A stretch of 64,000 nt of DNA, taken from assembly GCA_023390245.1 (NCBI GenBank), contig JAEWDF010000080.1:7182-71181 (forward strand), read 5' to 3'. Below the pieces are notes generated by a model. The model worked only from the letters and a program-made list of their open reading frames with translations, was not told the origin of the DNA and did no database searches. Positions within the stretch are counted from its first letter, which is position 1. Each line of letters begins with the position of its first letter. This document shows positions 17,527-44,708 of the stretch, piece after piece. Source of the DNA: Pseudomonadota bacterium. GTDB taxonomy: Bacteria; Pseudomonadota; Alphaproteobacteria; Caulobacterales; Caulobacteraceae. A program made the position numbers and the translations under genes.

Positions 17527-18579
17527 TTGAGGCAGACCGCCCCCTCGACCAACGGAGCGCCCGCGCCCAAGGGGCCTTTTGACCGCATGACCGACGCCGC
17601 CCATTCCTCTCCTGATGAGATCGCCGTGATGACCGACCGGGCGCGCGAGGTGGTGCGGCTGAACATCGAGGCGCTGGAGGCGCTGGAACGGTCGCTGGAC
17701 GTCTCCATCGCCCGCGCCGCCGACGTGATCATGAGCCGGCCCGGCTATGTCGTCGTCACCGGCATGGGCAAGTCGGGCCATATCGGCGGCAAGATCGCCG
17801 CGACCCTGGCCTCCACCGGCACCCACGCCTTCTTCGTCCACCCCGCCGAGATGAGCCACGGGGACCTGGGCATGCTGCGCGCCGACGTGACGGTGCTGGC
17901 CCTCTCCAATTCGGGCGAGAGCCGCGAACTGCGCGACCCGCTCATCTTCTGCCAGCGGAACGGCATCCCGGTCATCGCCATCACCCAGCGGCCCCACAGC
18001 TTCCTGGGCCGCAACGCCGCTGTCTGCCTGACCATGCCCAAGGTGGCCGAGGCCTGTCCCAACGGCCTGGCGCCGACGACCTCGACCCTGATGACCCTGG
18101 CCCTGGGCGACGCCCTGGCCATGGTGCTGATGGACCGGCGCGGCTTCACCGCCATGGACTTCGGCCTGCATCACCCGGGCGGCGCCCTGGGCATGAGCCT
18201 GCAGACGGTGCGCGAATGGATGGGCGACAACGCCGCCGCCCCCGCCAGCGTGCCCCTCGACGCGGCCTTCGGCGAGGTGGTCTCCACCGTCACCGCCGGC
18301 CGCAAGGGCGCCGCCGCCGTGCTCAACCCCGACAACACCCTGGCCGGCATCATCACCGACGGCGACATCCGCCGCGCCTTCCAGCGCGACATCACCGCCC
18401 TCAGGGCCGCCGACATAATGAGCCCCAACCCCATCACGGTGGAGCCCGACGCCCGCATGAGCGACGTCGTCGACCTGCTGACGGCGAACAAGATCTCGAC
18501 CCTGTTCGTGGTCGAGGACCACAGGCCCATCGCCATCGTCCACATCGCCGAACTGATGCAGGCGGGGTATGTGGCGTGA
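17527..18579 (+). CDS. kpsF: Arabinose-5-phosphate isomerase (SIS domain plus tandem CBS)
   Basis: VVVTGMGKSGHIGGKIAATLASTGT is the SIS domain. The GHPGGALG linker and the CBS pair (GIITDGDIRR, LFVVED) follow. The start codon is uncertain. Confidence 0.9.
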   Translation: MRQTAPSTNGAPAPKGPFDRMTDAAHSSPDEIAVMTDRAREVVRLNIEALEALERSLDVSIARAADVIMSRPGYVVVTGMGKSGHIGGKIAATLASTGTHAFFVHPAEMSHGDLGMLRADVTVLALSNSGESRELRDPLIFCQRNGIPVIAITQRPHSFLGRNAAVCLTMPKVAEACPNGLAPTTSTLMTLALGDALAMVLMDRRGFTAMDFGLHHPGGALGMSLQTVREWMGDNAAAPASVPLDAAFGEVVSTVTAGRKGAAAVLNPDNTLAGIITDGDIRRAFQRDITALRAADIMSPNPITVEPDARMSDVVDLLTANKISTLFVVEDHRPIAIVHIAELMQAGYVA

Positions 18580-18640
18580 TTTCTCAGGCCCGACGATTAG
18601 CGAGCCTTCAATTCCATGACCAACGAATAAGAGGGAATCC

Positions 18641-19975
18641 GTGACGATCGAAGTCAAGGATGCGGCGGCTATCGAAGCTCTCTGGTCCCACTATGAGGCG
18701 GCCATGAACGCCTTGATGGTCAGCCCACGCACTGGTGGTGACATCGCGTTGCCTACGGAAGTCGACGAACGCGGTCAATTATTGTCGTTCGCATTGCACG
18801 ATCCGCAGGTCGCCCTGGTCTGGGGGAAGGAACTTGCCTATTCGCAAATGGAAGTCTGGCAACCTTACATAGGCCTAAGCCATCGTCGGTTCGTTGCTTT
18901 TGCTCGGGCGCTAAAACGAGAAGGCCAACTTCCCAATCTTCCTAAAACACCTGCTTATGCGACCCAGAACGGGTTCAAGATCGGCGCGTTCGGACACGCC
19001 GCCCCCTCTCTGAAAACGTTCATCTACATTACCGACAAGGATGAAAATCTTGGCTTTTTGAGAGCCTTTCCAAAGGCGGTGCATGTCTGCGGTCATCATG
19101 GCGATTCGGATAAGCATTCCAGCTTCAGCCGCCTGCCCTCCGCCTACGACTTTATGTTGGTGGCCGATGCAAATTCGATGAACCGGTATCTGAGAGCTGG
19201 TATTCAGATCGAAACCGATCGCATGATCCCGATCGGCAACACGGTCGTGAAAGGCGCAGCCTTTAGCGAAGAGGCCAGCGCCTTTTCACGTCTTCTGTAC
19301 GCGCCAACGTTCGAAGGTTACAGCGAGCAGGCCAATTTTAGTTCAATGGGTCGCGCCTTTGATCAACTGTCGGAATGGGCGCGGAGCGATGGCAACGAGG
19401 CCGTGATCCGAGCGCATCCAGGATTGGGCAAGCGAGTGCAGGATTTCAGGAAAAAGGTAACCGCCTTTCCAAATTCTCCGGAGGCGGCAGGACTAAGAAG
19501 AAAACATCATCAGTTCAATTGGTCCGACTACCTCATCGCCGATATTTCCGGCGTCACATCGGAATATCTTTTTACAGGCAAGCCGATCATCATTCCCGTG
19601 GCAAAAACACCAGAATGGCTGTGGTCTTACACGTTAGGCCTCAACCTGAGGGATTACGCCTATCTTTGGAACTACGAAGAACTTTCTCTCGCAAACTTCA
19701 TCGCAACCATCCGCCACGATCCATTGAAGGAAGCTCGCCTTCGTCGCCGCGATGAATTGTATGCAGGAGTGCGCACGTTCAAGCAATCGAGCAAATTGTT
19801 CGAAGGATCCCTAAGCTATTTTGAACATTGCCATCGTTGGCGTGAGTTGCGTCATGGCGGTCACCCTTTTCCTTCCTCGCGTAGGCCGCTGAGCGCCTCT
19901 CCTCGCCCAACGTCTTCGGAATTGGGCGCGCTGGTCGAAACATTGATCAGCGGTGAGACGACATTGCGGGCATGA
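18641..19975 (+). CDS. TagF-like CDP-alditol:poly(alditol-phosphate) phosphotransferase (Glyphos_transf family), paralogue 1
   Basis: CGHHGDSDK, LLYAPTFEGY, IRAHPGLG and LIADISGVTSEYLFTGKPIIIPV match the TagF-family pattern. The GTG start follows AGAGGGA. Confidence 0.75.
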   Translation: MTIEVKDAAAIEALWSHYEAAMNALMVSPRTGGDIALPTEVDERGQLLSFALHDPQVALVWGKELAYSQMEVWQPYIGLSHRRFVAFARALKREGQLPNLPKTPAYATQNGFKIGAFGHAAPSLKTFIYITDKDENLGFLRAFPKAVHVCGHHGDSDKHSSFSRLPSAYDFMLVADANSMNRYLRAGIQIETDRMIPIGNTVVKGAAFSEEASAFSRLLYAPTFEGYSEQANFSSMGRAFDQLSEWARSDGNEAVIRAHPGLGKRVQDFRKKVTAFPNSPEAAGLRRKHHQFNWSDYLIADISGVTSEYLFTGKPIIIPVAKTPEWLWSYTLGLNLRDYAYLWNYEELSLANFIATIRHDPLKEARLRRRDELYAGVRTFKQSSKLFEGSLSYFEHCHRWRELRHGGHPFPSSRRPLSASPRPTSSELGALVETLISGETTLRA

Positions 19976-20082: not shown

Positions 20083-21435
20083 TTGCAAATGACCATTGGA
20101 GTGATCTTGGCTGGCGGGCGTGGACTGCGTTTTGGTCAGAGCAAACCAAAGCAATTCACGCCTTTGGCGGGCCGTCCTGTCATGGATTACGCGATCGAAG
20201 CCTTTGCTGGACACCCTGATATCGCTGAGATCTTCGTCACCTATCCCGAAGGCTTCCGTGACGAGACGGAACGGTTGGTGGCTCCATATCGACGCTTCAA
20301 GCCCATCAATCTCGTGCAGGGAGGAACTTCGCGCCCGGCTTCGACGCGAGCCGCGCTGGACGCCATAGGCATGACAAGCCGATCCAAGATTCTCTTCCAC
20401 GACGGCGTCCGCCCTTTTGTGACTGCGGACATCATAAGTAGAACGATCGCGGCCCTGGACACTAGCGACGGTGCGGATGTCGTCATACAGACGGCGGATA
20501 CAATCGTGCAGTTGGACGAGGCGCAAAAGCAACTCGACAACATCCCGCAGCGCGCGCAACTCCGACGCGGGCAGACTCCTCAGGGCTTCTGGTCCGATAC
20601 TCTGGGGGAAGCCTATGCATCCATGTCGGACGAAGTTCTCGGACGCTTCACCGATGACTGCGGCGTACTCTTGGCGCATAAGGCGGACGCTAGGATTGCA
20701 GCGGTGGAGGGTTCGGAACGAAACATCAAGATCACCCATCCGGTCGACATGTTCCTGGCGGAGCAGTTGCTCTACCTTGGTCAGAGCCAACGCTCCTCGA
20801 TAGAGAAGACCTATGAGGAGCCCGTAGCCGTGATCCTAGGCGATACATCGGGCCTCGGCCTTGTCGTCCGCGAGCGGCTGGAAGATTTGGGGTGGCGCGT
20901 CTTCGGCGCCTCTCGCTCCAGCGGTGTGGATGTTCGCGATCAGGGCGCCTTAGATCAACGCTTGAAGGCGATCGCCAAGGAAGCGGGCAAGATAGATTTG
21001 GTCGCCAACTTCGCCGGTACGCTTCATGTTGGCCGCCTTGATTCTACGGACTTCGGCGCCATCGACGAGATGATCGCCACCAATCTCATGGGATCGATCC
21101 ATGTGGCGCGAGCGGCCTATGAGCATCTCGTTCACTCTGGCGGCCATCTGATGCTGTGTTCGTCCAGCAGCTATTTCCGCGGCCGTCGCGACACGGCTGC
21201 CTATTCCGCATCCAAGGCGGCCGTTGTGAACCTGACCCAAGCGCTTGCTGAGGAATGGGCCGATGACGGCGTGACCGTGACCTGCGTCGTGCCTCGTCGA
21301 GCGGATACGCCGATGCGGCAGAGGGCTTTCCCCAATGAGGATCCTGCCTTGCGCATGAAGCCGGAGCGCATGGCGGAAGCCGTGGAGGAACTTTTACGCC
21401 ATCCTCAGAACGGCCTGATCAAACACGTGAATTGA
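20083..21435 (+). CDS. Bifunctional IspD/TarI-like cytidylyltransferase plus SDR reductase (CDP-ribitol synthase type, Bcs1/TarIJ-like)
   Basis: N-terminal half: ILAGGRGLRFGQSKPKQF, HDGVRPF, GQTPQGF, TDDCG, NIKITHPVD. C-terminal half: GDTSGLG Rossmann motif and the YSASK catalytic motif. Confidence 0.85.
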   Translation: MQMTIGVILAGGRGLRFGQSKPKQFTPLAGRPVMDYAIEAFAGHPDIAEIFVTYPEGFRDETERLVAPYRRFKPINLVQGGTSRPASTRAALDAIGMTSRSKILFHDGVRPFVTADIISRTIAALDTSDGADVVIQTADTIVQLDEAQKQLDNIPQRAQLRRGQTPQGFWSDTLGEAYASMSDEVLGRFTDDCGVLLAHKADARIAAVEGSERNIKITHPVDMFLAEQLLYLGQSQRSSIEKTYEEPVAVILGDTSGLGLVVRERLEDLGWRVFGASRSSGVDVRDQGALDQRLKAIAKEAGKIDLVANFAGTLHVGRLDSTDFGAIDEMIATNLMGSIHVARAAYEHLVHSGGHLMLCSSSSYFRGRRDTAAYSASKAAVVNLTQALAEEWADDGVTVTCVVPRRADTPMRQRAFPNEDPALRMKPERMAEAVEELLRHPQNGLIKHVN

Positions 21436-21450
21436 GAAAAGCAGCCGATC

Positions 21451-22740
21451 GTGAAATTCCTTTTCAGGCCGCGACGCCTGTTCAACATTGTAGAAAAGCT
21501 TCGCGCCAGCCAGGGGGAAGCCAATCGCTTGTTGCGGCAGGCCAATGTCGAACTCACCATCGCTCGACGAGAGATCGCCACCGCCAGAACGCAGATCAAC
21601 GCGCTCAAGGGCAAGCTCAAAAACCCCGCGCAACGTCCGGGTCTCGAACTGGCGCTCAAGTCTTCGATCTTGGCCGAAGCGCCGGCCATCCTGCACGTCA
21701 GCGACGGCCTGGGTTCGGAATTCCATATCGATCTGTGGTTGCAGCACCTTCGCGAGGCATTAGGCCAGCATGTCGTTGTCGTCGTCCGGGTGGCGGCGCT
21801 GTTCGATGCCATCAAGGCCCGCCCCGATGTTGATTGCATCTTCGTCCGGGATGGTCGCGACGCCGAAAACCTCGCGGCGCAATGCCCCAAGCTGAAGGCG
21901 ATCTTCTACGCCTCGAACACTGGGACGGTGATTCACTTCATTCGCCTGAATCACCTGACGCACGTCTTCCTGGGACATGGGGACAGCGAGAAGGCCGCAA
22001 GTTGCCACCGCTTCTTCCGCGTCTATGACGAAGTCTGGACGGCGGGCCAAGCGCACATTGATCGGTTCACCGCCTCCGGGCTGGACTTCTTAGGCCTGAA
22101 CTTCCGCGTCGTGGGCCGGCCCATGTTACGCGGATTGCTGAAGGAGCGCCCGACTGCGGCGACGGGACGATTCCTCTACCTTCCCACATGGGAGGGCTAT
22201 CAGGACTCCCAGAACTATTCGTCGCTGCCATGCGCACCGGCCCTGCTCGAGAGGGTCGCCGATCTCACCGACCGCTTCCCCGTGGTGAAGTTTCACCCGC
22301 TGACCGGCACGCAGAAGAAGGAGCCGCCGTACCGCGAGGCGACCCTTAAGACCTGTTTCCTGGAAAGTGAGATCGACATCCGTCCACGAAGCCAAGCCAT
22401 CGCCGGTATCATCCATGAAGTGGACTTCCTGATCAGCGACATCTCCAGCGTCATCACGGATTTCCTTGCGACGCTAAAGCCGATCTTCGTCTTTATCCCG
22501 ACCGAGGCCCGCATCCGCCTGTCGGCCTCGCAAATGCCCTACGACGCCTACGCCTACCTCTTCTCCACGGACGAGGAACTCGCCGCACTGGTCGAGCAGG
22601 TCGTTGTGCAAGGCCGCGACGATCTCGCCGAGGCGCGCCGGAAGGCGCTGGATTATTTCATTGACGTCGAGGCGACCGTTACGGATCAATTCGGTCGAGA
22701 ATTAAAGCGTCTTTGCCTAGCTCAAGACCCATTGATGTAA
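21451..22740 (+). CDS. TagF-like phosphotransferase, paralogue 2
   Basis: LGHGDSEK, FLYLPTWEGY, VKFHPLTG and LISDISSVITDFLATLKPIFVFIP parallel the motifs of 18641-19975. Confidence 0.75.
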   Translation: MKFLFRPRRLFNIVEKLRASQGEANRLLRQANVELTIARREIATARTQINALKGKLKNPAQRPGLELALKSSILAEAPAILHVSDGLGSEFHIDLWLQHLREALGQHVVVVVRVAALFDAIKARPDVDCIFVRDGRDAENLAAQCPKLKAIFYASNTGTVIHFIRLNHLTHVFLGHGDSEKAASCHRFFRVYDEVWTAGQAHIDRFTASGLDFLGLNFRVVGRPMLRGLLKERPTAATGRFLYLPTWEGYQDSQNYSSLPCAPALLERVADLTDRFPVVKFHPLTGTQKKEPPYREATLKTCFLESEIDIRPRSQAIAGIIHEVDFLISDISSVITDFLATLKPIFVFIPTEARIRLSASQMPYDAYAYLFSTDEELAALVEQVVVQGRDDLAEARRKALDYFIDVEATVTDQFGRELKRLCLAQDPLM

Positions 22741-22747
22741 GGCGCAC

Positions 22748-23560
22748 TGACGTGACCCCCTGAAACTCCTCCAGGAATAGCTAGAGTCCGCCCCTCGAAA
22801 GGACGGACAGAATGAAGCGATCAAGGTTCACGGAAGAGCAGATCATCGGTATCCTGCGGGAGCAGGAGACCGGCGTGGCGACGGCGGAGGTGTGCCGACG
22901 CCACGGAGTCAGCTCGGCGACCATTTTACAAACGGAAGGGTAAGTTCGGCGGGCTCGACGTGTCGGAGGCTCGGCGGCTGAAGACGCTCGAGGATGAGAA
23001 CGCCCGGCTGAAGCGGATGCTGGCGGACGCGATGTTGGACAACGTGGCGCTGACCTGCTGGGAAAAAAGTGGTGGCGCCCGCCGGCTATCGCAAGGCGGC
23101 TGGTCATGTGCAGGCCGCCTACGAGATAAGCGAACGGCGGGCGTGCCATCGTCAGCGACAGGGGCACGGAATACACCTCCAACGCGGCCCTGGCTTGGGC
23201 CGACGACACCGGCGTCGGCTGGCATTGCATTGCGCCGGGCAAGCCCCAGCAGAACGGATTCAACGAGAGCTTCACCGGGCGGCTGCGCGACGAACTGTTG
23301 AACGAGACGTTGTTCCGATCCCTGCCGCACGCCCCGCGGTGTTGAGGCCTGGCGGCGTGATTACAACAAGTAGCGTCCGCACTCGAAGCTCGGATGGCTG
23401 ACGCCTCAGGCTTACGCAGAAGCGCTCACCGGACAGATCGGCCGGTCCGCTGCGCTGGTTGCAGGCTGCGCTGACCGATCTCTTGCCAACCCCGATAATC
23501 ACGGCTCAGATCAACCCAGGACTCTCGTTTTTGGCTGGATGAGAAACGGGGGTCACGTCA
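22748..23560 (+). mobile_element. Decayed, internally deleted IS3-family (IS407-like) insertion sequence with its terminal inverted repeats retained
   Basis: IRL is TGACGTGACCCCC at 22748-22760. IRR is GGGGGTCACGTCA at 23548-23560, a 13/13 reverse complement. The fragments in between are OrfA (MKRSRFTEEQIIGILREQETGV...) and OrfB. Confidence 0.85.
22812..23545 (+). pseudogene. IS3-family transposase orfAB remnant with a frameshift, an internal deletion and premature stops
   Basis: OrfA stops after ...SSATILQTEG and then continues in another frame (KFGGLDVSEARRLKTLEDENARLKRMLADAMLDNVAL). OrfB keeps only its N-terminus ([17 protein letters not shown]) and its C-terminus ([51 protein letters not shown]; [18 protein letters not shown]). 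The end coordinate is approximate. Confidence 0.8.
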
Positions 23561-23606
23561 GTCACGTCACTTGATTTCGGCCGTGGCGCGTGGCCATGTC
23601 GCAGGC

Positions 23607-24644
23607 ATGAGAAATCCGTATTCCGGCCTGCCTCCCGAACGATTTTGGCGCACGGGCGTCAGTGAGCAGCATCCGCTTAGCATAACGGGCCTATACCGTA
23701 AGAAGTTCACTATTGACCCCGAGGCAAAGATCGCCACTGGTGGTAGCTGCTTCGCCCAGCACATTGGCGGCCATCTGCGCGCAGCAGGCTATCACGTGAT
23801 GGATGTCGAGCCGGCTCCTTCCTCAATGAGTGACGACACCGCTCGCAAATACGGATATCGAATCTATTCCGCTCGCTACGCGAACATCTATTTAGCACAA
23901 CAACTCCTTCAGATCGCGCGCGAGGCCTATGGCGAGTTCGAGACGCCAGCGCCGGTTTGGGAAAAGGACGGACGCTTCTTCGACGCCATGCGTCCCTCGG
24001 TTGAGCCTGAGGGCCTATCCAGCCCGGACGAAGTCATGGCGCATCGTTCCCAGCACTTGGCGGCGGTTCGCCGAATGCTTGAGGCGATGAACCTATTCAT
24101 CTTCACGTTCGGCTTAACCGAAGGATGGACGGATAGAAAAACCGGTGCGGTTTACGCTACGGCGCCAGGCGCGATCGCAGGCAGTTACGATCCCAAGCAG
24201 CATGTTTTTAAGAACTACAGGGCGTCGGAGATTCGCGAGGCGTTCCTGGCGTTTAGGACGCTGGTCCATCGGACCAATCCGGGTGCCAAGTTCCTTGTCA
24301 CCGTTTCGCCAGTGCCACTAACGGCCACCGCCAGCCAGGACCATGTGCTTTCAGCCACGACCTACTCAAAGTCGGTTCTTCGCGCCGTCGCTGGAGAGTT
24401 GGCCGAAGATTTCGACGACATCGATTACTTCCCTTCCTACGAATTGATCGCCTCGCCCTTTTCTCGCGGCTTCTTCTATTCACCTAACCTGCGCACCGTG
24501 GAGCAGCAGGGCGTCGAGACAGTGATGCGCAACTTCTTTCAGCAGCATCCTCGACTGGAGGCCAAACCCGCAGCAAACGCTAAGCGTGGGCCGTCGAACG
24601 ATGATATCGTCTGTGAAGAAGCTATGTTGGAGGCGTTCTCATGA
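23607..24644 (+). CDS. GSCFA-family protein (SGNH-hydrolase-like, function unknown)
   Basis: The eponymous motif is IATGGSCFAQHIG. The family-typical N-terminus is MRNPYSGLPPERFW, so I prefer the start at 23607 over the one at 23571. Confidence 0.8.
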   Translation: MRNPYSGLPPERFWRTGVSEQHPLSITGLYRKKFTIDPEAKIATGGSCFAQHIGGHLRAAGYHVMDVEPAPSSMSDDTARKYGYRIYSARYANIYLAQQLLQIAREAYGEFETPAPVWEKDGRFFDAMRPSVEPEGLSSPDEVMAHRSQHLAAVRRMLEAMNLFIFTFGLTEGWTDRKTGAVYATAPGAIAGSYDPKQHVFKNYRASEIREAFLAFRTLVHRTNPGAKFLVTVSPVPLTATASQDHVLSATTYSKSVLRAVAGELAEDFDDIDYFPSYELIASPFSRGFFYSPNLRTVEQQGVETVMRNFFQQHPRLEAKPAANAKRGPSNDDIVCEEAMLEAFS

Positions 24645-25444
24645 AGGTCGCAATCCTGGCGAATTCGCACGTTCACATGCTCAAGCACGCCATCGATCAA
24701 CGCGCGCCGAGTTGGTCTCCGACCTTATTCGCGGCCCCCGCTCGGGGTCTATACAGCCTCAGGCGGCTTCCGAAGCGGCAAGGACTTTTCACACGCAAGG
24801 CGGAACTCTCCAAATGGTTGGCGCGAACCTCCGGCGGCCTAACGGAGATTCGGTATGACGAGTATGACAGCTTCGCCATCGTCGGATTAGCGTTACGCAC
24901 TCATGGCGCATTGCGGCTATTCGATCGATACCAACCTCACCGTTTCCGACTCGACAAGAGCGCTTCATTGATTTCGGAATCTGCCTTTCGCGAAGCTGCA
25001 AAGTCCGAACTCGAACGATCGGCCGGCTACCGAATGATGCGCCTGCTCTCCAATCAGAAGCAGCCGGTTGTTGTGGTTCCGGCGCCATTTCCTCACCACG
25101 CGATCATGGAGCGCAGCGGATACCAATGGATGAAGCACGACGATGGCACAGCAGCCATCTGGATAAATGGCGTGATAGAGAGCGCCATCAAGGATTTGGC
25201 GCACCCGTTCGGATATAAAGTTCTTTCACAGCCCGCCGAGACGATTTCTTCACTTGGGCTGACAAAGCCGGAATACGGCGTCGGAGCGAAGCGGATCACT
25301 GGAGGCGAGTACGGAGAGCAGGATATTTCCCACATGGGACCAGTCTATGGCCACATCGTTCTGAACCAAATCGGGGATGCGCTTGGAGCCAAGACGTCTG
25401 CCAACGCTGAAAAGATTGGAAGTGCTGCATCAGCACCGCTGTGA
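24641..25444 (+). CDS. Hypothetical protein (267 aa), translationally coupled to the GSCFA gene
   Basis: There is an ATGA overlap with the upstream stop. The N-terminus KVAILANSHVHML and the late DISHMGPVYGH faintly resemble SGNH blocks I and V, but this is weak. Confidence 0.55.
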   Translation: MKVAILANSHVHMLKHAIDQRAPSWSPTLFAAPARGLYSLRRLPKRQGLFTRKAELSKWLARTSGGLTEIRYDEYDSFAIVGLALRTHGALRLFDRYQPHRFRLDKSASLISESAFREAAKSELERSAGYRMMRLLSNQKQPVVVVPAPFPHHAIMERSGYQWMKHDDGTAAIWINGVIESAIKDLAHPFGYKVLSQPAETISSLGLTKPEYGVGAKRITGGEYGEQDISHMGPVYGHIVLNQIGDALGAKTSANAEKIGSAASAPL

Positions 25445-26277: not shown

Positions 26278-26339
26278 CTTCAGAGCATCGCCTTCGCCGG
26301 CCAAAGAACTCGGATACCGGTTTGCTCATCAGCCGCCGA

Positions 26340-35859: not shown

Positions 35860-35890
35860 CACCGGATGCTTACGGGCGCTCCGGCGCGGG

Positions 35891-37351: not shown

Positions 37352-38619
37352 AGCGTAAAACCACGGTGGCTTAACCAGGTTCGGGAGTCGTCATCCATGT
37401 CGACCTGATCGACCGCCTTGAAAGCCAGGTCGTACAGCGCTCTTTCCCGATCGGCCGCGTCGCTCGACGCGATATCGGGCGACATCAGCACCGATCTGAG
37501 CTCCACGAGATCGCCGGCTTCGAACTCGCTGCGAACACCCAACCGTCGGGCCGCGACGGCGGCGGCCAGTGCGTCGGTCAGGGAGTACCCCCTGAGACAG
37601 GCAACATTCCGTCCTCTCGCATGGCGCACCAGTTGTTCCGCCAGGCGGACCACGCACGCGGAATCGACGGGATCGAAGGGCTCGACCACACGAAGGTTGG
37701 ATGCATCGGTCCCGGGGGCAGGCACGAGGGCCATGAAGATCTCCGAGCCGGAATCACCGCTGGTCAGCCTACTGAACAGACATTCCCGGCCTTGAGCGTC
37801 GACATTCTGTGCGACATGAAAGACGACGCCGCTCGCGCGGTCCGCCGTCGCATAATGGAGCAAGGCCTTGCTGGCCCACTCCAGCAAATCCCGACGGCTC
37901 TGCGCCTGTTTCACCCCTGGCGTATCGGCGAGCCCGGCAAGCACCAGCGCCTCGCGATCGCGCCCCGCCCGTAGTCGCCCCTCCGCCAAGGCCGTAGCCA
38001 GACGACGATCCTGATTGGTCAGGACAAAATGTTCCAGAACGGCTTCGCCGAACATGTCCTGTTCAAGGTGAAGAGGACCGCCTCTTTTCTCGACGGCCCG
38101 GCCAAATCGCAGAACGGCGGCCATGAGCCGCCGGCTTTCCGCCCACGAACTCAGGTCGGCGCCGAGGCGCTCCTCACCGCCGAGCGGGCGCATCATCACA
38201 TCGCGGACGGCATGACTGGCGTTATCGGTTGCGGTCACCGATCTGAATTCGACTTCGACGACCTCCGTTCCATCCGGCGGTCGCATAACCAGGCGGAAGG
38301 CGTCCTCGATGCGCGAATCGAAGGGATGGACATAGGCCTCTCCCGATTTCGAGATGCGCAGCGCCTTGCCCGGAGCCGAGAGGGATAGACCGCTCCTGTC
38401 GAGGAACCTCACCGCAGCAATCACGTCTCGCGACGAGCCATGGCTGGCGGACAACAATTCGCAGGAAAGCTCGATGTTCGCCGCGTCAACCGGCAAGCGC
38501 CAGCGCTCGATGTACGGAGATCTGGAGATCACGCGCCAGTCCGGCGTCACCTGCAGCGGTTTGAAACGCTGCAACCGACGCCAGCGTGCGATTCGCCGTC
38601 GAAAACTCGTCTCTGCCAT
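37348..38619 (-). CDS. Hypothetical protein (423 aa), first gene of the minus-strand operon
   Basis: ORF track entry. Its composition matches its neighbours. It is translationally coupled to the TPR-LicD gene. No recognisable motif. Confidence 0.6.
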   Translation of the reverse strand: MAETSFRRRIARWRRLQRFKPLQVTPDWRVISRSPYIERWRLPVDAANIELSCELLSASHGSSRDVIAAVRFLDRSGLSLSAPGKALRISKSGEAYVHPFDSRIEDAFRLVMRPPDGTEVVEVEFRSVTATDNASHAVRDVMMRPLGGEERLGADLSSWAESRRLMAAVLRFGRAVEKRGGPLHLEQDMFGEAVLEHFVLTNQDRRLATALAEGRLRAGRDREALVLAGLADTPGVKQAQSRRDLLEWASKALLHYATADRASGVVFHVAQNVDAQGRECLFSRLTSGDSGSEIFMALVPAPGTDASNLRVVEPFDPVDSACVVRLAEQLVRHARGRNVACLRGYSLTDALAAAVAARRLGVRSEFEAGDLVELRSVLMSPDIASSDAADRERALYDLAFKAVDQVDMDDDSRTWLSHRGFTL

Positions 38620-38765: not shown

Positions 38766-40313
38766 TTGGCCCGACAAACCGCCCGCACAGCTCTGTGCGG
38801 AAACTATGGACGGCCCGAAGCCGAAGTCGCAGCGATCCTGTCGGAAGGCTGGCGCGCGCGCCCTGATACACCCAGAGTACATCTGCCGGGCTCGACCGAC
38901 GATTGGGAAAGCGATCCCTTCTCGGATCGCAATTGGACCTTTCAACTGCACGCATGGCGGCCGATGGCTCCGATGGTCGTGGCTCATGAAACGAGCGGCG
39001 GCGCTCGCTACCTTGAGGCGGCCGCCGCATTGGCTCTCTCCTGGAAATCCGCCGAGACGGTCAATGCCGGCAAGGATTTCGGCCTGTATTGGAACGACAT
39101 GGGATCGGGCATCCGGGCCTCGAAGCTCGCCTATCTCCTGCAGCACGGCCGGGCGGCGCGACTTCCGCAACAGGATCTGGCGGCTCTTCAGGCCCTGGCG
39201 CAGCAGCATCTCGATCGCCTCGGCGACCCGGCCTTCCTCGGCCAGTCCAACCACGCCTTCTTCCAGATTCACGGGCTCAGGGCCCTTTCGCTCGCAGCGC
39301 CGGAACTGGAGGGCGCCGCGGCCGCCCACGCCTACGCCGGCAAGGCCCTCCTGGCCCTGCTGAAGCAGCAGTTCGGTGAGGAAGGCGTGCACCTGGAACA
39401 CTCGCCCGGCTACCATGTCTTCGCCCTGCGTACGCTCCGACGCATGCTAGCGACGGGCTTCTACGAGGATCTCCCCGACGCCTTCGCCGTCCTGAAGCGC
39501 GCACGGCGCCTGGCGACATGGCTGACCTTCCCCGATGGCATGGCGGCGGCCTTCGGCGACACCGACCGGGACGCCCGGCGGTTGACGTACCGGCCCGCCA
39601 AGCGCGCGGCCCGACTGTTCCGCGAGGCCGGCTACGCCGTCGTCCGCGCGCCGGCGTCCGCGCCGCACGGCCCGGCGGTGCTGATGGTGGCGGCGGGGCA
39701 CCACAGCAACGTCCACAAGCACGCCGACGACCTGTCGTTCGAACTCTACGATCGCGGCCGTCACTGGATCGTGGACACCGGCAAATACTCCTATTCCAAG
39801 GCCGACTGGCGCGCGTATACCGATAGCGCGCGTGCGCACAACACGGTGGAATACGATCCGGCCAGTCCCGGCAACGGGGTCCGGCGCACGCCCCCGGCCG
39901 GCGGCATGCTGCACGCCCTGCGCCAGCAGGGCGACGCCTGGATCATCGAAGGGCGGGTGGAACGCCCGGTCGTCGGCGCCGCTCATGCCCGGCGCTTCAC
40001 CTATCGCCCCGGGGAAAGCCTGCTCATCGAAGACCTGTTGACCTTCGACGACGCGCGCGACGCTGTCGCCTGGCTTCACCTGCCGCCTGATCTGGAGGCC
40101 GAGCAGACCTCGGGCGGCTGGCGCTTTCCCGGAGGCCGCATTCTCTATGCCAGTGACGTCCCTCTGACCCTGATTCGCGCGCGCGGCGCGACCGAACCGG
40201 AAATCCAGGGCTGGCTGGCGGAGGGCTACCACCGCATCACGCCCAACGACGCCCTAGGGGCGCGCTTCCATGGACGGCGGATTCGCCTCTCGACCAGCCT
40301 CGTCTTCGACTGA
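38766..40313 (+). CDS. Heparinase II/III-family protein (polysaccharide lyase or uronate epimerase fold)
   Basis: HKHADDLSFELYDRGRHWIVDTGKYSY...ARAHNTVEYD is typical of the Hepar_II_III domain. The N-terminal alpha/alpha-toroid-like region has FQLHAWR. Confidence 0.75.
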   Translation: MARQTARTALCGNYGRPEAEVAAILSEGWRARPDTPRVHLPGSTDDWESDPFSDRNWTFQLHAWRPMAPMVVAHETSGGARYLEAAAALALSWKSAETVNAGKDFGLYWNDMGSGIRASKLAYLLQHGRAARLPQQDLAALQALAQQHLDRLGDPAFLGQSNHAFFQIHGLRALSLAAPELEGAAAAHAYAGKALLALLKQQFGEEGVHLEHSPGYHVFALRTLRRMLATGFYEDLPDAFAVLKRARRLATWLTFPDGMAAAFGDTDRDARRLTYRPAKRAARLFREAGYAVVRAPASAPHGPAVLMVAAGHHSNVHKHADDLSFELYDRGRHWIVDTGKYSYSKADWRAYTDSARAHNTVEYDPASPGNGVRRTPPAGGMLHALRQQGDAWIIEGRVERPVVGAAHARRFTYRPGESLLIEDLLTFDDARDAVAWLHLPPDLEAEQTSGGWRFPGGRILYASDVPLTLIRARGATEPEIQGWLAEGYHRITPNDALGARFHGRRIRLSTSLVFD

Positions 40314-40385: not shown

Positions 40386-41261
40386 ATGAGCCTGACGCCC
40401 TTTCCCTTGAATCGAGGCCGCCGCGGGCCGGATTGGCGCGCCTTCGGCGAACGACTTGACCGCAATCCGACGTGGCGGGCCGCCCGGATCAGCGCCACGA
40501 CCATCTACGCCCTGCTGCTGCGCGAGGCCGTCACGCGGTACGGCCGTCGTTCCGCGGGATACGTCTGGTCGCTGATCGAGCCTCTTCTCCAGCTTACCGT
40601 CATGCTGACCGTGTTCGGCTTCATCGGACGATCGCCGGCCGTAGGCGAAAGTCTCGTCGTCTTCTTCATCACCGGCATCATGCCGCTGATGAGCTTCCGC
40701 AATGCGATCAACCGCGGCGCGCGCGCGATCACGAGCAACCGATCGCTGATGAACTATCCGCAAGTGCGCGCCTTCGAGATCATTACCGCGCGCGTGCTGC
40801 TCGAATTGCTCACCTCCGCGATGGTCGTGTTCATCATCGCGCTTTTCACGAAGGCCTTCTTCGCCCTGCCCTTCACGGCCTGGGTTGACAATCCTCTGGA
40901 ACTCGAAGGGGCGCTGCTGGTGCTGGCGCTGCTCTGTTACGGCGCCGGTTTCCTCAGCGCCCAGATCGGCCGCTTCTTCAATCAATGGAGCGATCTCACG
41001 CGCGCTCTCGGACGCTTGCTCTTCTTCACGTCCGGCGTCTGGTATACGCTCGATACCCTGCCGGCCGGACTGCGCAAATATGTCGCCTACAATCCTCTGG
41101 CCCAGGTCATCGAATGGATTCGCGACGCCGCCATTCCAGGCTTCGAGAGCCAGCACGTCAGCGCCTTCTATCCCATTGCCTTCGCCGTGGTCTGTTTGGT
41201 CATCGGCCTGTTCATCGAGTGGCTGTTCCAGTTCACCGGTCTCGAATTGGAGCGAGGCTGA
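40386..41261 (+). CDS. kpsM: Capsule polysaccharide ABC transporter permease (ABC-2 type)
   Basis: TTIYALLLREAVTRYGRRSAGYVWSLIEPLLQ is the ABC-2 N-terminal signature. There are six hydrophobic segments. The stop overlaps the kpsT ATG. Confidence 0.88.
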   Translation: MSLTPFPLNRGRRGPDWRAFGERLDRNPTWRAARISATTIYALLLREAVTRYGRRSAGYVWSLIEPLLQLTVMLTVFGFIGRSPAVGESLVVFFITGIMPLMSFRNAINRGARAITSNRSLMNYPQVRAFEIITARVLLELLTSAMVVFIIALFTKAFFALPFTAWVDNPLELEGALLVLALLCYGAGFLSAQIGRFFNQWSDLTRALGRLLFFTSGVWYTLDTLPAGLRKYVAYNPLAQVIEWIRDAAIPGFESQHVSAFYPIAFAVVCLVIGLFIEWLFQFTGLELERG

Positions 41262-41929
41262 TGATCGAACTGCGCGGCGTCCAGAAGTCCTATCGCACCA
41301 AGTATGGCTGGCGACCGGTCATCCGGCCGACGAACCTGGTGTTCTATCGCGGCTCGAACACGGCGGTCCTCGGCCTCAACGGGGCGGGCAAGTCGACGTT
41401 GATGCGGCTGATCGGCGGCGTGGAGCGGCCGGACAGGGGCAAGGTCGTGCGTAACGTCACCGTCTCGTCGCCCATGGGCGTGACTGGCGGGTTCAGCGGC
41501 AATCTGACCGGCGCCGAGAACCTGAAGTTCATCTGCCGAATCTACAATCTGGATATCCGCGAGACGACCGAGTTCGTGCGGGATTTCTCCGAGCTCGGCC
41601 CCTACTTCTATGAGCCGATATCGAGCTATTCGTCGGGGATGAAGGCCCGTCTGATGTTCGGGCTCAACATGGCCATCGACTTTCAGGTCTATCTCATCGA
41701 TGAAGGTCTCAGCGTCGGCGACGCCGCCTTCCGCCGCAAGTGTCAGGAAGCGTTCGCCGAGCGCCGCTCGCGTTCAGACCTGATCATGACCTCGCACAGC
41801 ATGTCGACCATCCGTGAATTCTGCACCAGCGCGGTGGTCGTGGACGAAGGCCAGGTGGTGCCGTTCCAGGATCTGGACGCAGCCGAGGAATACTACATGG
41901 AAGTTCTCGCCCGGAGGTCGGTCCAGTGA
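41261..41929 (+). CDS. kpsT: Capsule polysaccharide ABC transporter ATP-binding protein
   Basis: Walker A is GLNGAGKST, the signature motif is YSSGMKARL, and Walker B is VYLIDEGLSVGD. The start is at MIELRGVQKSY inside track ORF 40985-41929. Confidence 0.9.
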   Translation: MIELRGVQKSYRTKYGWRPVIRPTNLVFYRGSNTAVLGLNGAGKSTLMRLIGGVERPDRGKVVRNVTVSSPMGVTGGFSGNLTGAENLKFICRIYNLDIRETTEFVRDFSELGPYFYEPISSYSSGMKARLMFGLNMAIDFQVYLIDEGLSVGDAAFRRKCQEAFAERRSRSDLIMTSHSMSTIREFCTSAVVVDEGQVVPFQDLDAAEEYYMEVLARRSVQ

Positions 41930-43062
41930 CCTCTCTCGATGTCTCGGCCAGCGCCTCGCGCAACCAGGACCTTATCCGGCGGGCGCGCCTGATCCGGTCG
42001 GCCATCGTGCTGATCCTGGGCCCGACGCTGCTATACGCGATCTATCTGCTGGTGATCGCGCCGCCGCAGTACCACTCCGAAGGGGCGTTCGCTGTCCGGG
42101 GATCGCAGACGTCGTCGTTCGACGCGTTGAGCGCCCTCGGCATTTCCGCTCCGAGTTCGAATCAGGCCGACGCCCGCATCGTCGAAAACTACATCCGTTC
42201 CGATGCCGTCGTTCAGGCCCTTCGCGAGCGCTATGGCTTCAACGAGGCTTTCGACAAGGTCAGCCTTGATCCCACCGCCTATCTGTCGCCCAAGGCCACG
42301 CTAAGGCAGGCCCGCGAGTACTGGCGCCACAAGGTCGATGTCATACCCGATCCCGCGACGGCCGGAGCTACGGTGCGCGTCAGCGCCTTCACGCCCGAGG
42401 ATTCGATCCGCCTCGCGCGCGGCGTGCTGCAACTTAGCGAGGAACTGGCCAACTCCCTGCCGGATCGCGCGCTCGGCGACCTCATCCGGGCGGCGGACGC
42501 GAATGTCCAAGACAAGCAAGCCGCCTACGAAAAGGCCAGCGAGGCCCTGACCGAATATCAGGGTCGGCAGTATTCCGGTCTGCAAGCCGCGACCCCCGCC
42601 CAACAGGCTATCGCCCTGGTCGGGCAGTTGGAAGGGCAACTGGCGCAGAAGCGGGCCGACCTCGCCACCGCTCGCCAGACCTACCAGGCCAGCGCGCCCC
42701 AACTGACCGGCATCGAGCGCGAGATCGTCGCCTTGGAGGCGGAGCGTGATCGCGCCGTCCAGCGCGCCATGCAGGCTCCAGGTGAGCGGGCGGCCGCTGG
42801 CGAGATCGAGGCTCAGGGTCTGATGGTCGATTATCAAGTGGCTCAGCAGGCCTATCAGGCCGCCGTCCAGGCCGCCGACCAGGCGCGCCGCCAGGAAGTG
42901 CTCGATCGCAAGTACGTAGTGTCCTACATCCCGCCGCAGCAGCCGCAGTCATCGGACTGGTGGCCGCGACTGGCAAATATTCTCGCCGTCCTCATCGGCG
43001 CTGCGCTGATATGGAGCATCGGCGCCCTCGTCTATTCGATCATCCGGGACCACGTCGAATGA
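41926..43062 (+). CDS. kpsE: Capsule export inner-membrane adaptor (polysaccharide co-polymerase, KpsE/CtrB type)
   Basis: It has N- and C-terminal transmembrane segments, a long coiled-coil middle, and the early motif PQYHSEGAFAVRG. It lies between kpsT and kpsD. Confidence 0.8.
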   Translation: MTSLDVSASASRNQDLIRRARLIRSAIVLILGPTLLYAIYLLVIAPPQYHSEGAFAVRGSQTSSFDALSALGISAPSSNQADARIVENYIRSDAVVQALRERYGFNEAFDKVSLDPTAYLSPKATLRQAREYWRHKVDVIPDPATAGATVRVSAFTPEDSIRLARGVLQLSEELANSLPDRALGDLIRAADANVQDKQAAYEKASEALTEYQGRQYSGLQAATPAQQAIALVGQLEGQLAQKRADLATARQTYQASAPQLTGIEREIVALEAERDRAVQRAMQAPGERAAAGEIEAQGLMVDYQVAQQAYQAAVQAADQARRQEVLDRKYVVSYIPPQQPQSSDWWPRLANILAVLIGAALIWSIGALVYSIIRDHVE

Positions 43063-44708
43063 GCGCACGCATCCTATTCGCGGCGGCCGCCTGCATCTGC
43101 TGGGTCGGCGCCAACCCGGCGCTGGCGCAACAGGGCGCCCTGGCGCCTACGCCGACCGAGGCGGGTTTCCAGGCCCCGATGGGACCCGAGACACTGGTTC
43201 TGGAGCAGCGCGCCGGCACCCGGCCCCCGCCGCTCGGAGCCGAGATGTTCAGCGCGCCTGTCTTGGGCTCCGCGCGCGATTCCGACGCACTGGTCGACCC
43301 CAGCCATATCCTGCGCCCCGGAGACCGTGTCCGCGTCACGCTGTGGGGCATGGTCAACGAGAACCAGGAACTGACCATCGATCCGCAGGGCAATGTGGTG
43401 GTCCCCGGCGTCGGCCCCGTGCATCTGGACGGCGTTCCCGCCGGTCAGGCGCCCCAGGTGATCGAGGCGGCAAGCCGCCGCGTCTACAGCAGCGGCGTCC
43501 AGATCTACGCCACCGCCACGGGCGCCGCACCGACCCAGGTGCTGGTGACCGGCGCGGTCCAGAGGCCCGGCGCCTATGAGGGCGCATCCGACGACGCTCT
43601 GGTTCGCTATCTGCAGAAGGCCGGCGGAGTCGATTCCGAACGCGGCAGCTACCGGCGCGTCCGCATCATCCGATCCGGCCAGACCCTCGCATCAGCCGAC
43701 CTCTACGACTTCCTGCGGAGCGGAGTGTCGCCGGCGATATCGTTCCGGAACGGCGACGCCATCGTCGTCGAGGAACAGGGCCCCGCCGTCGCCGTCACCG
43801 GCGACGTTCGCGCCGCCTATTCGTTCGAATTGGCCGCTCAGGGCGGGACCGGCGGCGAGATCATGCGCTACGCCCGCCCGCGGCCCGGCGCCACGCACGC
43901 CGCCATTGTGGGTTTCCGCAACGGCCAACCCTTCTCCGCCTACCTGCCGCTCGCCGACTTCGCGACCTTCGCGCTTCAGGACGGCGACCGGGTGCAGTTC
44001 GAATCGGACGCCCAGGCCGTCGACATGCTGATCCGGGTGGACGGCGCCCATGAAGGAGCCTCGGTGTTCAGCGTGCCGCGCGGGACCACCGTCGGCGCGG
44101 TGCTGGCCAGCGTGGCTGTCGACGCGGACGCCGACTGGGAATCCGTCCATCTGCGCCGCGACAGCGTGCGCCAGACCCAGAAGGTGCTGCTGAACGAGAG
44201 CTTGGACCGGCTGGAGCGCACGATCCTGCTCAGCCCGGCCCGGTCGCCGTCCGAGGCCCAGGCGCGCAGCGCCTCGGCCCAATTCGCCGCCCAGTACATC
44301 GCCGCGGCTCGCCAGGTGGAGCCCCTGGGCGTCCTGGCCCTGAACGGGCGTGACCCGAACACCGTGTTGCTGGAGACCGGCGACGTCATCGTCATCCCGC
44401 GCCGGTCGCAGGTCGTCAGCATCGCCGGCGAGGTCCAGGCGCCCCAGTCGGTGCTGGCCAGCGGCCCGGCCCGCGCCTCCAGCTACATCGATCTGGCCGG
44501 CGGCTTCACCCGCCGCGCCGACCGCCGCAACGTCCTGGTCTATCGCCAGGATGGCCAGCTTCGCGAGGGCGCGGTCCAGCCGGGCGACCGGATCCTGGTC
44601 CAGGCCAAGCCGGATTCGACCCTGCTGCCGTTCATCCGCGACCTGACCCAGACCATCTTCCAGATGGCCGGCGTCCTGGTGGCGATCGATCGCTTCAGCA
44701 ACGACTGA
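43059..44708 (+). CDS. kpsD: Outer-membrane/periplasmic polysaccharide export protein (OPX family, KpsD/Wza-like)
   Basis: The signal peptide is MSARILFAAAACICWVGANPALAQ. The Poly_export motif is LRPGDRVRVTLWG. There are repeated SLBB-like segments (GDVIVIP, GDRILV). Confidence 0.85.
   Translation: MSARILFAAAACICWVGANPALAQQGALAPTPTEAGFQAPMGPETLVLEQRAGTRPPPLGAEMFSAPVLGSARDSDALVDPSHILRPGDRVRVTLWGMVNENQELTIDPQGNVVVPGVGPVHLDGVPAGQAPQVIEAASRRVYSSGVQIYATATGAAPTQVLVTGAVQRPGAYEGASDDALVRYLQKAGGVDSERGSYRRVRIIRSGQTLASADLYDFLRSGVSPAISFRNGDAIVVEEQGPAVAVTGDVRAAYSFELAAQGGTGGEIMRYARPRPGATHAAIVGFRNGQPFSAYLPLADFATFALQDGDRVQFESDAQAVDMLIRVDGAHEGASVFSVPRGTTVGAVLASVAVDADADWESVHLRRDSVRQTQKVLLNESLDRLERTILLSPARSPSEAQARSASAQFAAQYIAAARQVEPLGVLALNGRDPNTVLLETGDVIVIPRRSQVVSIAGEVQAPQSVLASGPARASSYIDLAGGFTRRADRRNVLVYRQDGQLREGAVQPGDRILVQAKPDSTLLPFIRDLTQTIFQMAGVLVAIDRFSND

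Follow-up and report, generated by a model that had tools for sequence, protein, structure and literature searches.

The 64,000-nucleotide stretch of contig JAEWDF010000080.1 (assembly GCA_023390245.1) analysed here, hereafter the window, comes from a metagenome assembly and carries, at positions 18573-44718, a 26.1-kb strain-variable surface-polysaccharide island in which enzymes of the teichoic acid type are encoded together with a Kps-type ABC exporter. Judging from homology and gene neighbourhood, we consider a teichoic-acid-like capsule, exported by this ABC transporter, to be the most likely product of the island. The physical linkage of both gene sets in a high-GC alphaproteobacterium was the core of an earlier reading of the bare sequence (the original prediction) and it holds, the gene families named there being present where they had been placed, or within a few codons, and matching the families expected. 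Open reading frames (ORFs) in this high-GC window were picked by their third-position GC content and then scanned against Pfam and NCBIfam.

In the pathway that we propose, CDP-ribitol would come from a fused enzyme consisting of a TarI-like cytidylyltransferase and an SDR reductase, and CDP-glycerol from TagD. A protein with a TPR-like part and a LicD part would draw on CDP-glycerol and extend a lipid primer by a short oligo(glycerol-phosphate) linker, as CpsC of Actinobacillus pleuropneumoniae does, and its coupled partner, a 423-amino-acid (aa) protein designated unk423, would probably assist in this step. Two single-domain TagF-like enzymes would use CDP-ribitol, one of them probably priming and the other polymerising a ribitol-phosphate-containing chain. 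Analogues of such priming and polymerising enzymes are TarK and TarL of Gram-positive ribitol-type wall teichoic acid (WTA), or CpsD of A. pleuropneumoniae. KpsM and KpsT would then move the finished chain over the inner membrane, and KpsE and KpsD through the periplasm and the outer membrane. A further cassette, together with a heparinase-like protein, would either add glycosyl units containing N-acetylmannosaminuronic acid (ManNAcA) to the polymer or make a second glycan, the latter role being presumed from Brevundimonas strains that have the cassette but no adjacent TagF, LicD or Kps genes.

Polyol-phosphate enzymes

The genes for the ribitol-phosphate part lie together on the plus strand: the TagF-like polyol-phosphate transferase TagF1 (18641-19975; 444 aa, a single catalytic domain), the fused CDP-ribitol synthase of the Bcs1/TarIJ type (20083-21435), and TagF2 (21451-22740; 429 aa), a predicted ribitol-phosphate transferase or polymerase. 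Both TagF-like proteins score above the gathering score of PF04464 (22.1), with 28.4 bits (E=1e-6) for TagF1 and 29.2 bits (E=5.8e-7) for TagF2, in matches that span only the C-terminal half of the model, and they are 27% identical to each other. Apart from one catalytic domain, their 429-444 aa comprise no more than a helical segment at the N-terminus; the glycosyltransferase (GT) and TPR domains that are fused to the TagF-like domain in multi-domain enzymes were not found in either of the two proteins. TagF1, whose gene has a GC content of 0.54, keeps the motifs GHHGDSDK (151-158), RAHPG (257-261) and DISG (301-304), so that H152/H153, H259 and S303 provide the residues of the TagF catalytic motifs.

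For TagF2, a word-based search returned 75 homologues. An alignment of 30 of these shows H176 (F-L-G-H-G-D-S-E-K), H282 (K-F-H-P), D330 and S332 to be invariant, and the segment S332-S333..D337 to be invariant or conserved, which reproduces the TagF pattern of H444 (xHG), H584 and SS..D, with the correspondence of the histidines set by motif and not by structural superposition. The profile of this alignment matches the TagF-like domain of Cps3D from A. pleuropneumoniae (8QOY, E=2.7e-3), residues 329-337 aligning to Cps3D 645-652, the DxSS...D segment that its authors named the active site (PMC11666461). An AlphaFold (AF2) model of TagF2 (pLDDT 85) adopts a GT-B fold with a TM-score of 0.53-0.55, relative to the query, against the TagF structures 3L7x, and it has Cps3D, TarL and Bcs3 among its top 30 neighbours in the PDB. 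Single-sequence PDB searches with TagF1, TagF2, the GSCFA-family protein described below and unk423 gave nothing useful. Taken together, the family scores, the catalytic motifs, the TagF-like model of TagF2 and the neighbourhood bear out the two TagF-like ORFs of the original prediction.

The fused enzyme is a single ORF with an IspD domain (145 bits) and an adh_short domain (104 bits), and it reaches 158.6 bits with the ribitol-5-phosphate cytidylyltransferase model NF001183, against a cut-off of 166. The top four PDB matches of its IspD-like domain (2vsh, 4jis, 3f1c and 6xhp) are all ribitol-5-phosphate cytidylyltransferases of the TarI type, which supports the CDP-ribitol supply that had been assigned to this gene.

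The strongest context for these enzymes comes from other genomes. A TagF2 profile scan over one genome per species yielded 593 confirmed matches; 80 of these loci were retrieved, 21 of them Gram-negative. The fused CDP-ribitol synthase adjoins the TagF2 homologue in 18 of these 21 loci, as it does in many actinobacterial ones, and Kps export genes lie within 10 kb of the TagF2 homologue in at least 8 of the 21. Since the pair stands beside kps genes in many beta-, gamma- and epsilonproteobacteria, the combination of TagF2, CDP-ribitol synthase and Kps genes is not rare, and the novelty attributed to it at the outset was overestimated. In Chromobacterium and in a metagenome-assembled genome (MAG) of an uncultured member of the Burkholderiaceae, the pair is found inside canonical kpsF-MTED...kpsC-S loci. 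The locus of Chromobacterium alkanivorans (L007 4578-17332) consists of kpsF-M-T-E-D, a TagF2-like gene, the IspD-SDR fusion, a 385-aa ORF without family match, KpsC and KpsS; because its variable region holds only TagF2, IspD-SDR and one further gene, TagF2 must be the polymerase there. This locus may specify a simple poly(ribitol-phosphate) capsule and may include a new transition transferase.

The closest relative of the island is found in a closed Brevundimonas MAG (L004/L100), which has WecC, GSCFA, unk267, two pyruvyltransferases, TagF1, TagD, an intact IS3 element, IspD-SDR, TagF2, the LicD-like gene, a homologue of unk423 and KpsMTED, at 42-76% identity (29% for the unk423 homologue). 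Orthologues of TagF1 accompany TagF2 and the fusion in this locus and in two others (L003 and L014), and the trio of TagF1, TagF2 and CDP-ribitol synthase occurs in Rhizomicrobium and Mycoplana with neither TagD nor Kps genes within 10 kb. This recurrence of the trio without TagD in its vicinity suggests that both TagF-like enzymes use CDP-ribitol. It was also one of the grounds for rejecting TagF1 as a primase of the CpsA/TagB type, the other being that TagF1 keeps the first catalytic histidine, which is replaced by a tyrosine in Cps7A (PMC11666461). In the Rhizomicrobium sp. MAG (L003 8319-13300), the stand-alone set consists of CDP-ribitol synthase, TagF2, TagF1 and a glycerophosphodiesterase, located between two housekeeping genes, a PaaE-like gene and hemE, with no GT or export genes nearby.

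Members of the TagF2 family are also found as fusions. The putative methyltransferase encoded at 25441-26277 (plus strand; Methyltransf_23, 26.8 bits, just below the gathering score of 27) has homologues that directly follow TagF2 homologues, or are fused to them, in five loci (L015 and L017-L020), none of which has an ABC exporter within 10 kb. TagF2-like enzymes of Pseudomonas (P. delhiensis) and Stenotrophomonas carry such a homologue as a C-terminal fusion, and P0048-P0061 of the TagF2 family carry PF13489. Fusions were seen in P0015, P0016, P0020, P0033 and P0048-P0061, some of them to a glycerophosphodiester phosphodiesterase domain (PF03009).

These loci speak for a different role of the same enzymes, in which the GT2 and GT4 enzymes of the cassette would make a ManNAcA-containing backbone, the TagF-like and LicD-like proteins would do no more than attach single side groups of ribitol-phosphate or glycerol-phosphate, and the Kps proteins would export the decorated product. 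Fusion to methyltransferase or glycerophosphodiesterase domains is typical of modifying enzymes, in Rhizomicrobium and Mycoplana TagF2 and CDP-ribitol synthase make up small modules of their own, with neither a GT nor an exporter in the vicinity, and LicD-family enzymes are classically single-transfer phosphotransferases, the best PDB match of the LicD-like protein being the ribitol-phosphate transferase FKRP. Against this stand the Chromobacterium locus, where TagF2 must polymerise; CpsC, which shows that LicD enzymes can polymerise (PMC11666461); and the occurrence of the ManNAcA cassette elsewhere without polyol genes within 10 kb. We regard decoration as an unlikely alternative to the polymerisation of a teichoic-acid-like chain.

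The glycerol-phosphate part of the proposed pathway is encoded on the minus strand. The TagD-like glycerol-3-phosphate cytidylyltransferase, for CDP-glycerol supply, matches PF01467 (CTP_transf_like) with 80 bits and TIGR01518 with 150 bits against a cut-off of 165; this confirms the assignment first made, with the ORF (35446-35916) extending further than had been assumed, to 35916. Beside it is the gene of the LicD-family CDP-polyol phosphotransferase (35891-37351), a CpsC-like protein with a helical and putatively TPR-like N-terminal half. Its PF04991 match of 27.1 bits is above the gathering score of 22.6 and covers only the region of the DxD motif, and the LicD family assignment, weak and partial on this score, is backed by motif and neighbourhood: the protein matches FKRP in the PDB (E=1.4e-3), with HDKDIDVG (299-306) aligned to the DxD motif of FKRP. 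At the level of 50% clusters, 2420 cluster representatives are related to it at E<=1e-3. The TPR part of the window protein is sub-threshold (TPR_MalT, E=0.0022), and among its homologues P0239, P0217 and P0297 (376-379 aa) have both TPR and LicD domains in Pfam, with P0160 named a TPR protein by the Joint Genome Institute (JGI). The same order of domains, TPR in front of LicD, is found in Cps7C (378 aa; PMC11666461).

Translationally coupled upstream of the LicD-like gene is unk423 (37348-38619, minus strand), for which no family, PDB or word-search homologue was found, the word search returning only the protein itself. The sole relative, 29% identical, is the ORF that precedes the LicD-like gene in the closed Brevundimonas MAG, and that ORF has a sub-threshold match to a GT4 N-terminal domain. 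The succession of LicD-like gene and TagD recurs in a MAG of the Caulobacteraceae (L098), with no TagF or Kps gene within 10 kb, which indicates that the LicD/TagD pair moves as a unit in Caulobacterales. On its opposite strand, the small island in question (L098 10001-16189) has a further LicD-like paralogue, and it also carries a 647-aa ORF and a GT2 gene.

TagD and LicD had been taken as contributors to the repeat unit of the polymer; a module for a glycerol-phosphate linker, like that of CpsB and CpsC (PMC11666461), is the better interpretation of this pair. The set of TagD, TPR-like/LicD and TagF-like enzymes matches the scheme of transition transferase plus polymerase described in 2024 for CpsA/B/C/D of Actinobacillus (PMC11666461).

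The Kps exporter and the anchor of the chain

The exporter is encoded at the right end of the island, on the plus strand. KpsM, the ABC-2 permease (40386-41261), matches ABC2_membrane with 57 bits, the KpsM model NF050053 with 117 bits, which is below the equivalog cut-off, and VexB with 77 bits. KpsT, the 222-aa ABC ATPase (41261-41929; ABC_tran), has TagH and Wzt as its best NCBIfam matches, with a match to VexC as well; it has no C-terminal carbohydrate-binding domain, and its ATG overlaps the kpsM stop codon. KpsE, a polysaccharide co-polymerase (PCP-3; 41926-43062), matches the BexC/CtrB/KpsE model TIGR01010 at E=1.9e-43, residues 25-376 covering positions 6-360 of 362. KpsD, the outer-membrane polysaccharide export (OPX) protein (43059-44708), has a Poly_export and two SLBB domains behind a signal-peptide-like N-terminus, and its ATG at 43059 overlaps the kpsE stop codon. 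The genes kpsE and kpsD are translationally coupled to kpsMT. The KpsMTED exporter of the original prediction is thus present, with amended starts, that of KpsT most likely lying at 41261 and that of KpsD at 43059.

The label "group-2-type", which had been given to this exporter, is unproven. KpsC and KpsS (PF05159), the beta-Kdo transferases behind the canonical lyso-PG-poly-Kdo primer of group 2 (Kdo, 3-deoxy-D-manno-octulosonic acid), were not found in the 64-kb window, in about 10 kb past each of its ends, or in the 21-kb locus of the closest relative. KpsC and KpsS from L007 and from L021, used as tblastn queries, gave no match in the window or in the closed Brevundimonas MAG (L004), though four other loci (L009, L012, L013 and L026) were matched, and the related loci of Chromobacterium and the Burkholderiaceae do carry both genes. 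They could be encoded elsewhere in the genome. Two proteins without family match, unk423 and the 569-aa cassette protein unk569, were considered as divergent KpsC and KpsS and rejected, as neither has a Capsule_synth match even at E=10 or tblastn similarity to genuine KpsC/KpsS; for unk569 as KpsC, the AF2 model shows two FN3 domains and a CE4-like barrel instead. Reviews describe KpsS and KpsC as conserved across ABC-dependent capsule systems, with the exception of the Vi antigen (PMC12220298), and CapsuleFinder treats them as accessory components (PMC5542703).

The absence of KpsC and KpsS from the region covered, together with the TagH and Wzt matches of KpsT, would also suit a glycan linked to lipopolysaccharide (LPS), for which the polymer would be built on undecaprenyl phosphate and ligated to the lipid A-core, with the transporter acting like Wzm/Wzt. 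Teichoic-acid-like O-antigens exist, and three tandem genes of the GT9 (heptosyltransferase) family, probably for LPS core synthesis, lie about 4-7 kb past the right end of the window (L087 3193-6016). However, a full-length KpsE and a KpsD are coupled to KpsMT, and O-antigen ABC systems do not use such proteins; the best match of KpsM is the capsule KpsM model; KpsT lacks the carbohydrate-binding C-terminal domain of the Wzt type; and neither an initiating transferase of the WecA/WbaP type nor a ligase was found in the island by the Pfam and NCBIfam scans. Because KpsE and KpsD are present and KpsT is short, export of the capsule type is favoured, and an O-antigen appears improbable.

Brevundimonas may export a glycerol-phosphate/ribitol-phosphate polymer through KpsMTED without the beta-Kdo glycolipid made by KpsS and KpsC, the LicD-like protein and unk423 starting the chain on some other lipid anchor, for example a membrane glycerolipid as in lipoteichoic acid. 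This proposal is speculative and we hold it to be rather doubtful; if true, ABC-dependent capsules would have a third means of anchoring, besides poly-Kdo and the diacyl-N-acetylhexosamine of the Vi type.

The ManNAcA cassette and the assembly of the island

Between the ribitol-phosphate genes and the glycerol-phosphate module lies a block of plus-strand genes, presumably for a ManNAcA-containing glycan. It starts with a GT2 glycosyltransferase (26322-27851; PF00535, 102.6 bits; 56% identical in Brevundimonas sp. Leaf363), whose gene call in the public assembly begins about 210 nt further in, near 26532, and continues with a GT4 glycosyltransferase (27889-29817; Glyco_trans_1_4 and Glyco_trans_4_4) that has an N-terminal extension of about 240 aa, scores 315 bits with TIGR04063, below its cut-off, and is 57% identical in Leaf363. 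The next gene encodes unk569 (29910-31619), without Pfam or NCBIfam match, of which 13 homologues were found, the two with organism names being from Brevundimonas. In its AF2 model (pLDDT 82), Foldseek recognised pairs of FN3 domains and the deacetylases 3rxz and 3qbu (TM-score 0.38-0.47 relative to the target), so the modelled barrel weakly resembles CE4 polysaccharide deacetylases. It is followed by unk198 (31616-32212; 198 aa, no family match, 48% identical in Leaf363), by a putative methyltransferase (32209-32955; Methyltransf_23 at a sub-threshold 23.2 bits, 44% identical in Leaf363), and by the UDP-GlcNAc 2-epimerase WecB (33056-34174; TIGR00236, 438.6 bits against a cut-off of 210) and the UDP-ManNAc dehydrogenase WecC (34134-35420; NF008286, 517.7 bits against a cut-off of 459). 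The last two are above their cut-offs and support the supply of UDP-ManNAc and ManNAcA that had been proposed, and the GT2 and GT4 enzymes are likewise present as described; of the three to four methyltransferases claimed, only two ORFs were recovered (25441-26277 and 32209-32955), both sub-threshold.

A heparinase II/III-like protein with a fold of the lyase or C5-epimerase type is encoded to the right of unk423 (38766-40313, plus strand; Hepar_II_III_C 104 bits, Hepar_II_III_N 76 bits). It matches heparinase III in the PDB (E=3.7e-6) and is only 29% identical to the cassette copy of Leaf363. The cassette itself is conserved in Leaf363 and in two further Brevundimonas-like genomes, with the heparinase-like gene placed between the GT4 gene and the unk569 homologue. 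The full order of the eight genes there is GT2, GT4, heparinase II/III-like, FN3/CE4-like, an ORF of about 200 aa, methyltransferase, WecB and WecC, and the loci (L086 5040-15526; L090/L091 3779-15544; L092/L093 5135-15573) have variable flanks that include NeuB, giant GT2s and extra epimerases.

The 10 kb around the cassette in these three genomes are free of TagF, LicD and Kps genes. The original prediction had derived a single complex polymer from the whole locus. A phosphodiester-linked polyol-phosphate surface polymer remains the best prediction, but one locus for one polymer is not established, given that the cassette stands alone elsewhere.

At the borders of the island, nucleotide identity (blastn) to Brevundimonas albigilva CP097649 (L094), of about 86%, stops at 18572, the end of the "kpsF" gene, and restarts at 44719, with the thioesterase gene; at this site B. 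albigilva has 3.1 kb with three genes, for a GT4 enzyme, a 383-aa OPX protein and a 193-aa ORF. The GC content of the island is 0.54-0.69, compared with about 0.70-0.73 in the flanks. The left-border gene (17527-18579, plus strand) encodes an arabinose-5-phosphate isomerase of the KdsD/KpsF family (SIS and CBS domains; TIGR00393, 255 bits). Because it has a third-position GC content (GC3) of 0.94, like the flanking core genes, and is syntenic and 88% identical at the amino acid level to the gene of B. albigilva, it is a core kdsD-like gene outside the system, and its membership of the capsule system, as originally proposed, is not maintained. A dedicated KpsF copy was absent from the island in the Pfam and NCBIfam scans, as was any KpsU/KdsB-like ORF. 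The island is a 26.1-kb replacement cassette at a conserved polysaccharide hot spot, between kdsD and the thioesterase-def-fmt-truA block.

The host is judged to be Brevundimonas (Caulobacterales) because housekeeping proteins of the window fall into clusters of at least 90% identity with those of B. albigilva, B. mediterranea and B. vesicularis, in agreement with the earlier guess of a member of the Caulobacterales.

In its composition the island is a strain-specific, horizontally assembled mosaic in the Brevundimonas chromosome. Module A (18.6-26.3 kb, GC 0.54-0.60) comprises TagF1, CDP-ribitol synthase, TagF2, an IS3 remnant, GSCFA, unk267 and the first methyltransferase; module B (26.3-35.4 kb) is the cassette from GT2 to WecC; and module C (35.4-38.6 kb, minus strand) comprises unk423, LicD-like and TagD, with overlapping junctions. 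The remainder is formed by the divergent heparinase II/III-like gene, followed by kpsM-T-E-D. Four ORFs of the island (267, 569, 198 and 423 aa) have no family match. The IS3-family remnant (22746-23562), between TagF2 and GSCFA, is internally deleted, with perfect 15-bp terminal inverted repeats (ACTGACGTGACCCCC), a called 43-aa HTH_Tnp_1 ORF and readable transposase fragments. The GSCFA-family protein (23571-24644, plus strand; PF08885, 171 bits) is 72% identical to its counterpart in the closed Brevundimonas MAG (L004), where it has the same downstream partner, unk267 (24641-25444, plus strand; no family match), 41% identical and directly 3' of GSCFA.

Such a patchwork could in principle be a decaying one, without a coherent product, whose modules adjoin only through IS-mediated accumulation at this site. 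The IS3 remnant would fit this, as would an intact IS3 (OrfA and OrfB) at the equivalent place in the related Brevundimonas MAG, between TagD and CDP-ribitol synthase (L100 7201-8390), the different GC contents of the modules, and the heparinase-like gene outside its usual cassette position. In the same MAG, the LicD homologue (L004 11281-12711) has one in-frame stop, directly before the FLISGTLLGC motif, which is either a pseudogene mutation or an assembly error. However, all 22 window ORFs are full length and intact, with tight or overlapping junctions (kpsM/T, kpsE/D, unk423/LicD and GSCFA/unk267/methyltransferase of 278 aa), and the linkage of the modules persists in the second genome despite identities of only 42-76% (29% for unk423), implying selection. 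We regard decay as very improbable. A promoter and terminator scan of 35-45.5 kb gave match counts no different from those of shuffled sequence.

Other features lie outside the island. Positions 1-7234 of the window are a low-GC (0.54-0.56) integrated element adjoining a tRNA-Ala(CGC) gene at 7159-7234, with genes for an N6/N4 DNA methyltransferase (1272-2339), a resolvase (3526-4131) and a DUF6538 integrase-like protein (5498-7102); a gene with a T5orf172/MUG113 domain closely precedes the window, and one public assembly of this genome has a break precisely at this element. Two adjacent genes for BLUF (blue-light sensor) domains (52048-52966, minus strand) are kept in B. albigilva.

Relation to known systems and meaning

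Several findings weigh against a teichoic-acid-like capsule. In the TagF2 fold search, generic GT-B enzymes score about the same as TagF, and Pfam recognises the TagF and LicD families only weakly and in part. A primase of the TagB/CpsA type, with tyrosine for the first histidine, was not recognised in the island, TagF1 keeping the WHG-type histidine, and the canonical group-2 primer enzymes KpsC and KpsS are missing from the region covered. In Rhizomicrobium, Mycoplana, Stenotrophomonas and Pseudomonas, TagF2 and IspD-SDR have no exporter in their neighbourhood, for which reason the TagF2 family may sometimes decorate other glycans and not polymerise; the ManNAcA cassette likewise occurs by itself, and the LicD homologue of the closest relative is interrupted. 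The capsule reading, which we still prefer, draws on a kind of system that is established in gamma- and betaproteobacterial pathogens, with TagF-like capsule polymerases (PMC5974469), Bcs1 and Bcs3 of Haemophilus influenzae type b (PMC10299916) and the transition transferases CpsA and CpsC (PMC11666461).

The closest of these systems is that of A. pleuropneumoniae serotypes 3 and 7 (PMC5974469, PMC11666461), which shares with the island a Kps-type ABC export, the supply of CDP-glycerol by TagD/CpsB, a LicD-family enzyme (CpsC, whose N-terminal half is of the TPR type; in the window protein the TPR match is sub-threshold), PF04464 TagF-like phosphotransferases with two catalytic histidines, and a predicted WTA-like phosphodiester polymer. 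However, its polymerases are proteins of about 1100 aa with TPR, GT and TagF parts, whereas the TagF-like enzymes of the island are single-domain proteins (429 and 444 aa); the polyol of the island polymer is predicted to be ribitol, from the fused CDP-ribitol synthase; and the island, in an environmental alphaproteobacterial host, is without a clear CpsA/TagB-type primase, has the additional unk423 and has no KpsC/KpsS nearby.

The ribitol-type WTA of Staphylococcus aureus (TarI/TarJ, TagD, TagB/TarF, TarL, TarGH) has in common with the island that both CDP-ribitol and CDP-glycerol are made, that TagF-family enzymes act on them following the logic of a glycerol-phosphate linker and then a ribitol-phosphate polymer (PMC11666461), that UDP-ManNAc comes from an epimerase of the WecB/MnaA type, and that export is of the ABC-2 type, TagH being the best NCBIfam match of KpsT. 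Contrary to S. aureus, the island belongs to a Gram-negative host, where KpsE and KpsD serve the crossing of the outer membrane. One fused protein takes the place of TarI and TarJ, its reductase part being an SDR and not of the MDR type, and a LicD-type enzyme is proposed for the glycerol-phosphate step. WTA linkage units make no use of ManNAcA, for which the island has WecC, and no TagO or TagA homologues are present in the island.

In H. influenzae type b (Bcs1 and Bcs3; PMC10299916), a fused cytidylyltransferase/reductase also makes CDP-ribitol, export is of the Kps/Bex type, and a TagF-like domain acts as ribitol-phosphate transferase (CroT; 8A0C, among the fold matches of TagF2). Bcs3, however, is a 1200-aa protein with additional ribofuranosyltransferase and phosphatase domains, none of which is found in the island, where there is no step dependent on phosphoribosyl pyrophosphate (PRPP). 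The VexABCDE system of Salmonella Typhi is a precedent for KpsMTED-like ABC export without KpsS and KpsC (PMC12220298), with VexB and VexC among the matches of KpsM and KpsT; it differs from the island in its VexE-like acyltransferase, absent here, and in the completely different chemistry of the Vi polymer.

The island represents, in an environmental alphaproteobacterium, a form of a capsule type that has already been elucidated in pathogens. What is unusual in it are TagF-like enzymes with a single domain, the co-occurrence of the two polyol routes, the orphan unk423 coupled to the LicD-like gene, and the lack of KpsC/KpsS nearby. Literature searches returned nothing for Brevundimonas and ribitol phosphate and nothing relevant for Brevundimonas and kpsM, and no link of this genus to such a capsule was found.

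To our knowledge, the characterisation of WTA-like capsules, and of the TagF-like and LicD-type enzymes that build them, has been confined to a few pathogens, where these enzymes are exploited for the enzymatic synthesis of vaccine antigens. The loci compared here show that compact, single-domain TagF-like enzymes and the fused CDP-ribitol synthase are widespread partners of Kps systems across alpha-, beta-, gamma- and epsilonproteobacteria, and that Brevundimonas combines these compact enzymes with a CpsC-like glycerol-phosphate module. The locus thus offers small, separable enzymes for the synthesis of ribitol-phosphate polymers, and a natural test case for whether Kps export always needs the KpsS/KpsC glycolipid. 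In Brevundimonas, which occasionally acts as an opportunistic pathogen, the island marks a hypervariable locus for surface antigens.

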